From: Escherichia coli
GTDB lineage: Bacteria > Pseudomonadota > Gammaproteobacteria > Enterobacterales > Enterobacteriaceae
Assembly (NCBI RefSeq): GCF_017348835.2
Contig: NZ_CP071375.1
DNA length: 64,000 bases
Reading direction: 5' to 3' (one strand)
Part shown: positions 57,901-60,900 of the stretch, piece by piece
Layout of the letters: each line of letters starts with the position of its first letter
How positions within the stretch are numbered: the stretch's first letter is position 1
Made by a program: the position numbers

Positions 57901-60900
57901 CGTACACGTCACGAAGGCGCTGCGATTCCGACTCCCGCTGTGCCTGACGGTCCGTCAGCCCCCGGGCTTTTGCGCTGATTGCAGCCTGCTTCGCACTCTG
58001 CTGCTGTTCAAACCGCACAGCCTGATTTGCCAGCTCATTCAGCCGTTTCTGGTATTCAACCTTGTCACCCAGGTCAGCCAGCTGGCGTTTGTACTCCAGC
58101 GTCTCTTGCTCATGGGCCAGCAGGGATTTCTCCTGTGCAGACAGCTGGCGACGTTGCGCCGCCTCCTCCAGTACCGCGAACTGACTCTCCGCCTTCCACA
58201 AATCCCGGCGCTGCTGGCTGATTTTCTCATTCGCTCCGCTGTGCTTCTCCAGCGTCCGGAGCTCGGTTTCAAGCGCCAGCAGCGCCGCATGCGTCAGGTC
58301 TTCCTGACGCTCACCGGCTGACACTTTGACTCCTGACGACTTCGGCTTTTTCAGCGTCGATTCATAATCCTTTTTCGCCGCCGCCATCAGCGTGTTGTAA
58401 TCCGCCTGCAGGATTTTCCCGTCTTTCAGGGCCTTATTCAGCTCTTCCTGCCGGTTAGTATATTTCTCCAGCGGCGTCAGCAGACGCTCATACGCCTTCT
58501 GCGCCTCTCCGGTATACTTCAGCTGTGATGCGTCCCGTTCGGCCCGGTCCCTGGTAGCCAGTTCACCGGCTTTTTCCATATCCGACTGCAGCGTGGCCGC
58601 TGCCAGCCCCAGACGGGCATTTTCCCGGTCATCCCATGCGCCCTGCAGGTTGGCACGGAAAGAGGAGGTCTTTCCCCGGCGCTGGCTCCGGCTCTGGTAC
58701 CACTGCCATTTTTTATCCGCCTCATCGAATGCCTTCTGCGCACTGGCAAGCATATCCGCTGAGGATTCCGGACGACCAATATCCAGAATGGCATCCCACA
58801 TCGATTTGAACGCCTTCCCTGTTTTATCCGCCCAGGTCTCCAGCGTCCCCATGTTTTCTTTCAGGCGACGGGTCTGCTCATCAAAGCCTTTCGTGGCAGC
58901 ATCGTTCGCCGCCTGTAAGGCCCCGGCCTCATCACCGGAACGCTGCAGCTGCGCAACATACGCAATCTGCTCTGCCGTCACGTTACGGAACTGGCGCGCC
59001 ATCGCCATCAGCCCCGACGTCGGGTCGGTGGTCAGTTTTCCGAAAGCCTCTGCAACCTTGTCCACCTCCACACCGGATGCAGAAGCAAAACGCGCGACAC
59101 TCTGGTTGATGGCATCAAACTGTGCACCACCACGCACACCGACATTCACCAGGGCTGCCAGTGACTCACTCGCCTGGTTAAACGTCAGCCCTGCGGCCTG
59201 TCCGGCTCTGGAGAGCGTCAGCATGCGATCGGCAGTCAGTCCGGACTGATTACCGGAAAGAACCAGGGTTTTATTAAACGCTGAAAGCGTGGAATCCCCC
59301 TGGTACCAGGCGTACGCCAGCGCACCTGTCGCCACCGCCAGCGAGGTGACCCCGACCATCGGCAGGGTGATCGTACCGGCAAGTCCCCTGAACATGGGGA
59401 TCATCCCGCCGAAGGAGTCCTTCACCTGACCGCCCTGTTGCAGCAGGATCAGCCAGGGATTCTGACCACCGGCAAGCTGCGTGGCGATATCCGTAAACTG
59501 TGCGGGCAGGGTTCGCATGGCCGCTTTATACTGCCCGACGGAAATCCCGGCTTTTTGTGCAGCCAGCGCCTGACGACTCAGGTTCTGCTCAACGACACCG
59601 ACGGTTTTTCTGGCGTCAGTCTCCAGTCCGGAAAAATGACGCCTTACCCGGCTCATCTGCTCATCGAAACGGACCGCATCCAGACTCAGGTCAATAACAA
59701 GATCACCAACCGGCTGGGACATATCTCACACCTCCCGGAATCCCCGCTGAAGCCATCATTAATGCGACATCATCCTCGCTGACATCCGCCACATCCGCAG
59801 ACGATAAAATCTCACGCCCTCCGTCCCCACCAAACCGTACGCCTCCGGCAAGTCCTGCCGCTTTCTGCATCAGCATTTTTTCCTCATCCGGCATCTCCGT
59901 CTGCGCTTTCTCACGCCGGGGGGCAAGCAGACTGAAATCAGAGGGATGCATATCCGGATCGCAAAAAAACAGGCTGAGTACGGCGTACGTCAGCCCGGAA
60001 AAATGCATATCCAGTTGGGTATCGTGAAAATAATGCGTACGGTAAAAATGTCGCCAGTCGGCATATTCGGTGGATGTCATCCCGGCAAGCATGGCGCGCC
60101 AGTCAGGCCTCCCCATCTCACGCGCCAGTCTGAGGGCAAAATTCAGCTCGCCGTCGAAGACTTTCCCGCAGAAAAATCATCATCAGTCAGCGCGTTATAT
60201 TTCGCCACTTCGGTGCTGTCAGTATCCGCATGAACAGCCCCGCTCATCCCGGACAGACGCAACACCACATCTTCCGCCCGGGCAATGGCATCCGCAGGCC
60301 AGGTGGTGAGCACTTCCTGTTCGATCTGCATCACAGCCTCATTCATTGACGGTGATGCCGTTTTCTGCGGATGGTTATGCCACAGGGACATCGCCACCAG
60401 AAACGCGCCGGTTCTGACGAGATCTTCCACGCTTACCTGCAGGTTGCCGCTGGCTTCCGCCTCTTCTGCCCGCCGTTTCAGGAGGGCAAGATGCTCAATA
60501 CGCTGCAGCGCAGACAATTCGGAAAGCGTGACAGACACACCGTTATATTCAAATTGTTCTGTTTTCAGAAACATGTATTACCTCCGTTTACCCTGCAGCG
60601 CCCGCTTCAGTAACGGTGACTTCAGCCACTGCGGCGAACTGACCATTTCCGCTCACCACAGGGATCTGCACCTTACCTGTCGCCACGCCGTTTACCGTAA
60701 TTGTCATATCTTTCACACTAATGGTGGCTTTCGACGGATCGGCGGAAACCACTCTGAACGTCTTGTCGGTTGCACTTTCCGGCTCAAAAGAAACCGTCAG
60801 GGTGGTTGTTTTCCCTTTTGCCACCGTACCGGATGTCGGCGTCACCTTAATCGCAGTGACCGGCGTAATTTTGCTGCGTTCTTCCGCTACAGAAGGTTTG

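Follow-up and report, generated by a model that had tools for sequence, protein, structure and literature searches.

We analysed a 64,000-nucleotide (nt) stretch of Escherichia coli DNA (contig NZ_CP071375.1, assembly GCF_017348835.2; hereafter the window) and conclude, with a probability of about 0.9, that a slippery heptamer near the end of its tail gene G is a lambda-type programmed -1 frameshift site, joining G to T in a lambdoid, effector-carrying prophage of a strain close to E. coli PE164. The G-T frameshift here is an already-known system, among the best-known recoding events, and the site is presumably competent as a sequence, to judge from its likeness to that of phage lambda. Owing to an amber codon in its gene M, the prophage itself is probably unproductive.

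A slippery heptamer in phase at the end of G

The elements of the site are as follows.

60161..60167, minus strand: slippery heptamer G_GGA_AAG, Gly137-Lys138 of G (position, phase, lambda match, conservation)
60143..60574, minus strand: gene G, tail assembly chaperone G, 143 amino acids (aa), ATG at 60574, TGA at 60145..60143 (open reading frame (ORF), translation, profiles)
59703..60161, minus strand: T segment, -1 frame, 152 codons, starting with the G at 60161 that is read twice and closed by TGA at 59705..59703 (open frame, profiles)
60143..60160, minus strand: dual-coding overlap, SSTAS* of G in frame 0 and VFDGEL of T in frame -1 (translation)

The letters CTTTCCC at 60161..60167 reverse-complement to GGGAAAG, which places the feature on the minus strand. 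A first-pass annotation of this DNA had reported the heptamer near the end of G and named no strand; it is indeed there, in phase as G_GGA_AAG. The G frame reads GCG_GGA_AAG at this point, the X_XXY_YYZ phase that a tandem -1 slip requires. Lys138 is the final zero-frame residue, and five further codons (SSTAS) lead to the G stop, so that 60143..60167 spans exactly the G stop codon through the heptamer. PMC5009743 lists G_GGA_AAG as highly prone to shifting in E. coli.

Both halves of the predicted product belong to known families. Pfam PF06894 (lambda chaperone G) matched residues 1-121 of G (E 1.8e-49, 167 bits), the NCBIfam equivalog TIGR01674 scored 161 bits against a cut-off of 74, and the same protein is annotated as gpG (WP_000479070.1) in PE164. 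The first-pass annotation had also held that the -1 frame is open into T; on re-translation a stop was looked for, and none was found across 152 codons. A -1 slip at the heptamer gives a 290-aa G-T fusion, which Pfam PF06223 (minor tail protein T) matched at 49 bits. The NCBIfam equivalog TIGR01715 matched the fusion at 201 bits (cut-off 77), aligning residues 143-252 with profile positions 1-110 of 111, and PHROG 32165, a family built from fused G-T proteins, covered 290 of the 290 fusion positions. The T segment is reached solely via frameshifting.

Alignment with lambda G and T, the check proposed with the first-pass annotation, came out in its favour. In lambda (J02459) the heptamer lies at 10109..10115, with identical sequence, phase and five-codon distance to the G stop, and the 279-aa lambda G-T product aligns along its whole length with the 290-aa fusion. 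Within the dual-coding overlap two substitutions separate the window from lambda; both are silent in the -1 frame and change the amino acid in the G frame.

The comparison was widened to 81 loci, made up of lambda and 80 related loci from an IMG/VR scan. In 81/81 GGGAAAG occupies the homologous site, five codons short of the G stop, and both frames are intact in 77. The four loci that failed the intact-frames test all retain the heptamer: L031 ends at a contig end, and L003, L004 and L064 carry 1-3 indels, which may be either decay or homopolymer sequencing errors.

The heptamer could in principle be a chance occurrence of a common word with no mechanistic meaning. Its frequency fits such an account, since GGGAAAG occurs 6 times in the 64-kb window against 7.4 +/- 2.9 expected from shuffles and is not enriched, and one further in-phase copy, in the tape measure gene H, is evidently fortuitous. 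The heptamer alone is therefore ordinary; its context, in phase, before a long open -1 frame and at the lambda-homologous position, is the non-random part. The -1 frame becomes open just 34 nt before the G stop, and we estimate the chance of an in-phase X_XXA_AAG at one of the approximately nine positions in that stretch at ~0.002. Both strands of the 64 kb were scanned for X_XXA_AAG in phase within ORFs of 80 codons or more, with 80 or more open -1 codons downstream; 60161..60167 was the sole match. The position is homologous to that in lambda and is kept in all 81 loci, and more distant relatives substitute other shifty A_AAG sites there. The comparative data effectively refute a coincidence, which has next to no probability.

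The remaining five GGGAAAG copies in the window mark no frameshift gene, and the only in-phase one in a real gene is that in H (58670..58676, minus strand, codons 350-351). It lies in a variable stretch of H, the motif is missing from lambda H, and the -1 frame runs for 13 codons. This copy is probably fortuitous, and a low-level truncated H could be its product.

The internal ATG of T

RefSeq models T differently, from a start codon inside the T segment.

60114..60116, minus strand: internal ATG, Met154 of the fusion, RefSeq start for stand-alone T (RefSeq coding sequence (CDS) in PE164 and O103:H2 strain 12009)

On this account T is an independent gene that starts at the ATG at 60116 and needs no frameshift. 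It is how RefSeq/PGAP presents the gene in PE164 and O103:H2 strain 12009: a 137-aa 'phage tail assembly protein T' (WP_000533415.1) as an independent CDS, corresponding to window positions 59703..60116 on the minus strand, without a ribosomal-slippage join. The coding signal, however, begins upstream of that start. From the heptamer onwards, 16 codons 5' of the ATG, the -1 frame has no stop and is conserved; in this interval (VFDGELNFALRLAREM) five codons differ from lambda, three of them synonymously in the -1 frame, and in the -1-frame stretch upstream of the ATG (VFDGELNFALRLARE) 13 of 15 residues are identical to lambda. In the first 79 codons of T, the -1 frame shows 86% aa identity to lambda and 0 stops, against 69-71% and three stops in each of the other frames. 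The TIGR01715 profile of T likewise begins at fusion residue 143, 11 residues ahead of Met154.

The ATG itself has little to recommend it as an initiator. Its place is taken by Phe in N15, phi80, mEp043, mEp460 and Gifsy-1, so it is not a conserved start, and no Shine-Dalgarno (SD) motif was found ahead of it. In lambda, moreover, the T region is produced as a gpGT fusion (PMC5009743). We judge the stand-alone T CDS to be an annotation artefact and an independently initiated T to be very improbable. Because RefSeq models T separately, the true 290-aa G-T product of this allele is absent from protein databases.

Points against a programmed site

Several results weigh against the frameshift reading. 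When the 136 nt from the site were folded, the structure was unremarkable (z = -1.5), and 19 of 200 shuffled sequences folded as well. An Rfam scan of 59000..61000 at permissive thresholds gave no match with E < 0.1, only two chance matches to eukaryotic families (E 0.18 and 0.38). No SD-like (GGAGG-like) motif lies in the 20 nt upstream of the heptamer, and we conclude that the site has no stimulatory element. The lambda site reportedly also works without a defined stimulator, so that a missing stimulator is no real objection. Two further points concern function. Loss of an intact G or T frame has not removed the heptamer from some relatives, and its presence alone is therefore no proof of function; and the prophage is defective in M, so that G and G-T products may have no present biological use.

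Partners and proposed mechanism

The proposed roles of the two products involve the neighbouring genes.

60588..61340, minus strand: major tail protein V homologue, intact, 250 aa (ORF; identical to PE164 WP_000106786.1)
60581..60585, minus strand: SD sequence GGAGG, 6 nt 5' of the G start (direct sequence reading)
57143..59722, minus strand: tape measure protein H homologue, intact, 859 aa (ORF; PE164 annotation; 79% aa identity to lambda H)

The V stop, TAA at 60590..60588, is followed by the G start 13 nt beyond it; at the other end, the T stop lies within the tape measure gene, and the T end and H start overlap by 20 nt. G, the T frame, V and H are all full length. In lambda, a low-level -1 shift sets the 30:1 ratio of G to GT on which tail assembly critically depends; the tape measure protein is the binding partner of the G part, and the major tail protein that of the T part (PMC5009743).

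By analogy with lambda, we infer the following course of events. Most ribosomes would terminate five codons after the heptamer and release the 143-aa gpG. A small fraction would pause with tRNA-Gly in the P site on GGA and tRNA-Lys in the A site on AAG; the former could then re-pair from GGA to GGG and the latter from AAG to AAA, one base back. A few per cent of ribosomes would in this way enter the -1 frame and make the 290-aa gpG-T. Its G part may bind H and its T part recruit V, so that the tail tube would polymerise to the correct length. Both gpG and gpG-T would act as chaperones, and neither is expected to be kept in the virion.

Intactness of G-T and the question of selection

The first-pass annotation had read the intact site as conserved despite decay elsewhere in the prophage, the decay being represented by an amber codon in M. 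The amber codon is present as described.

56817..57146, minus strand: gene M (minor tail protein), amber TAG at 56912..56910, codon 79, giving 78 aa instead of 109 (ORF, alignment)

At 56911 a TGG codon has become TAG; the residue is Trp in the M proteins of PE164, O103:H2 strain 12009 and lambda, and PF05939 (Pfam) matches M once the amber codon is repaired. The amber base was found in none of the complete RefSeq E. coli genomes, the best match reaching 99.8% with one mismatch, and the lesion is either private to the source strain or a sequencing error. ARAGORN found no tRNA gene in the window that might supply a suppressor.

The window is collinear with the chromosome of PE164 (a pig isolate, NZ_CP114128) from the fli region to the prophage major capsid gene. 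Over 47462..64000 (16,539 bases) only four substitutions separate the two: at codon 79 of M, at codon 246 of K, and one synonymous change each in I and J, so that two of the four create stops. The change in K (56113..55376, minus strand) turns TGT into TGA at 55376, leaving the protein two residues shorter than in PE164 and O103:H2 strain 12009; it sits 3 nt 5' of the ATG of gene I, whose start overlaps the end of K. An apparent fifth substitution, at 46405, proved to be an alignment artefact at the junction of an insertion sequence (IS) and was rejected as a polymorphism. Apart from M, the tail genes from Z to J are full length.

So few changes cannot show retention. At the rate seen against PE164, ~0.002 hits are expected in the heptamer and ~0.2 in the 872-nt G-T unit. 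With four substitutions in 16.5 kb, an untouched heptamer and an untouched G-T are the null expectation, and 'conserved despite decay' is therefore uninformative on selection; as a sign of retention the earlier claim finds no support. The ratio of non-synonymous to synonymous substitution rates was considered for this G-T copy and has no power, there being zero differences from the nearest relatives.

The same figures bear on another account of the locus, in which G-T is a neutral relic, intact because the inactivating lesions are very recent, and no longer usefully expressed or selected. G-T is 100% identical in PE164 and O103:H2 strain 12009, and the heptamer also survives in the three loci with broken frames. 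The M amber codon would block tail-tip assembly in a non-suppressing host, and the window holds no tRNA gene. Outside the window, the PE164 prophage has a frameshifted large terminase gene and three IS copies in its early region. Against this account stand the full-length state of the other tail genes from Z to J and the presence in PE164 of a second module encoding the same G, T and M proteins, through which products could act in trans; the divergence, moreover, is too low to measure selection either way. We regard a neutral relic as a possibility to be taken seriously, if not the one we favour. It is compatible with a mechanistically competent site and disputes only that the site is 'still functional, hence retained'. 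As a caution on method, a short motif that stays intact in a recently pseudogenised element is no evidence of selection.

The second module of PE164 (1909227..1922119, locus L096) is a near-identical head-tail module encoding the same G, T, M, L, K and I proteins; within the window itself no second copy of G-T or M was found. The portal, major capsid and tape measure genes of that module are marked as frameshifted, which could reflect lesions complementary between the two copies or homopolymer assembly errors. If the source strain shares the second module, M might, speculatively, be complemented or repaired from it. A tail module with a working G/G-T shift might also be expressed on induction, acting in trans or as a recombination donor for near-identical co-resident prophages; this we consider unlikely. 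Were it true, the M-amber prophage would be part of a complementing 'defective prophage pool' and not dead DNA, an incremental result, as such pools have already been described for enterohaemorrhagic E. coli (EHEC).

Decay and cargo of the prophage

The prophage carries nleB2, nleC, nleH, nleF and sodC as cargo. A 1057-bp IS903-type element at 46405..47461, flanked by a 9-bp target duplication ATTTCCCTC (46396..47470), splits nleB2, a type III effector gene on the minus strand, leaving one half at 47946..47462 and the other at 46404..45900. Its terminal inverted repeats are GGCTTTGTTGAATAAATC, and it contains a 322-aa ORF with a TTG start, a putative transposase; the insertion is missing from the otherwise near-identical PE164. 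By the PE164 annotation, which applies to identical sequence here, nleH (44347..45258, minus strand) is frameshifted, the nleC fragment (45579..45866, minus strand) is C-terminally truncated, and the tail-fibre-assembly gene is a remnant. The effector cargo region thus shows deletion-type and frameshift decay. The first-pass view that decay proceeds by point lesions and not by wholesale deletion therefore holds for M and K, where the changes are indeed single bases, and fails for the IS903-type insertion, the nleC and tail-fibre fragments and the frameshift in nleH.

Three observations concern the wider setting of the prophage. In PE164 an IS3-family copy of ~1.3 kb interrupts a porin gene (L095 32601..33910), and the window, at ~33902, lacks it; with that copy missing and an IS903-type element in nleB2, the source appears as a sister strain with a different IS complement. 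The sodC gene (Cu/Zn superoxide dismutase; 54074..54601, plus strand) lies between I and J, as in other EHEC and Salmonella lambdoid prophages. In PE164 (L091/L002) yccA/tusE adjoin the integrase end of the prophage and yodB/zinT/hchA its tail end, borders that lie beyond the window or at its edge; on the K-12 map the two neighbourhoods are far apart, and the arrangement suggests inversion or recombination between two prophages.

The discovery value of these results is small. Their use lies in the corrected annotation of T, in the caution on method and in a catalogue of lesions (M, K, nleB2) for the study of prophage decay.

Comparison with known systems

The E. coli dnaX and IS3-family sites share with the site here a -1 slip on a heptamer ending in A_AAG, read by the same tRNA-Lys. 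They rely on stimulators: an SD-like sequence upstream, a hairpin or pseudoknot downstream, or both. Around the site here neither a significant structure nor an SD-like stimulator at canonical spacing was found, and the site falls outside those families.

Lambda, whose own shift is experimentally established (Levin, Hendrix & Casjens 1993; Xu, Hendrix & Duda 2004, 2013, 2014; summarised in PMC5009743), is much closer. Gene order V-G-T-H-M-L-K-I-J is common to both, a recognisable stimulatory RNA structure is lacking in both, and the T end overlaps the H start in both (20 nt here, 8 nt in lambda). G has ~67% aa identity to its lambda counterpart (tblastn), and the first 79 codons of T have 86%. 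The two differ in the C-terminal third of G, which has diverged and makes G 3 aa longer here; in T, which is 11 aa longer owing to small insertions in the acidic linker and a VPAGW extension; and in a base after the heptamer, at +2 (GTC here, GTG in lambda). These differences leave the slip site untouched.

Among the lambdoid prophages of EHEC and enteropathogenic E. coli (EPEC) and the Shiga toxin (Stx) phages, the O103:H2 strain 12009 prophage, Stx2a-converting phages and PhiR5_1 have the same heptamer and a T frame of 149-152 codons. The G-T DNA is 100% identical to that of O103:H2 strain 12009, PE164 and others, and 97.7% identical in Stx2a-converting phages. The EHEC/EPEC modules show no difference within G-T; the copy here differs in adjoining an M gene with a private amber codon.

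More distant phages keep the position and vary the heptamer. VT1-Sakai and 1720a-02 have A_AAA_AAG at the same position; N15, phi80 and mEp043 have G_GAA_AAG, which the N15 record annotates as a slippery sequence; and the G ends of mEp460 and Gifsy-1 can likewise be read as G_GAA_AAG. N15 gp14/gp15, phi80, VT1-Sakai and Gifsy-1 share the position and architecture, with a -1 shift onto an A_AAG lysine codon, and in these four the T N terminus is conserved from the slip site on, whereas G is only 32-51% identical.

Membership in the lambda-type G/G-T chaperone frameshift class (the class of Xu et al. 2004) was assessed on five sequence features, all of which are present here: two overlapping ORFs between V and H, a shifty site near the end of G, an open -1 ORF without a conserved start, membership of the lambda G and T families, and a slip site conserved at the homologous position.

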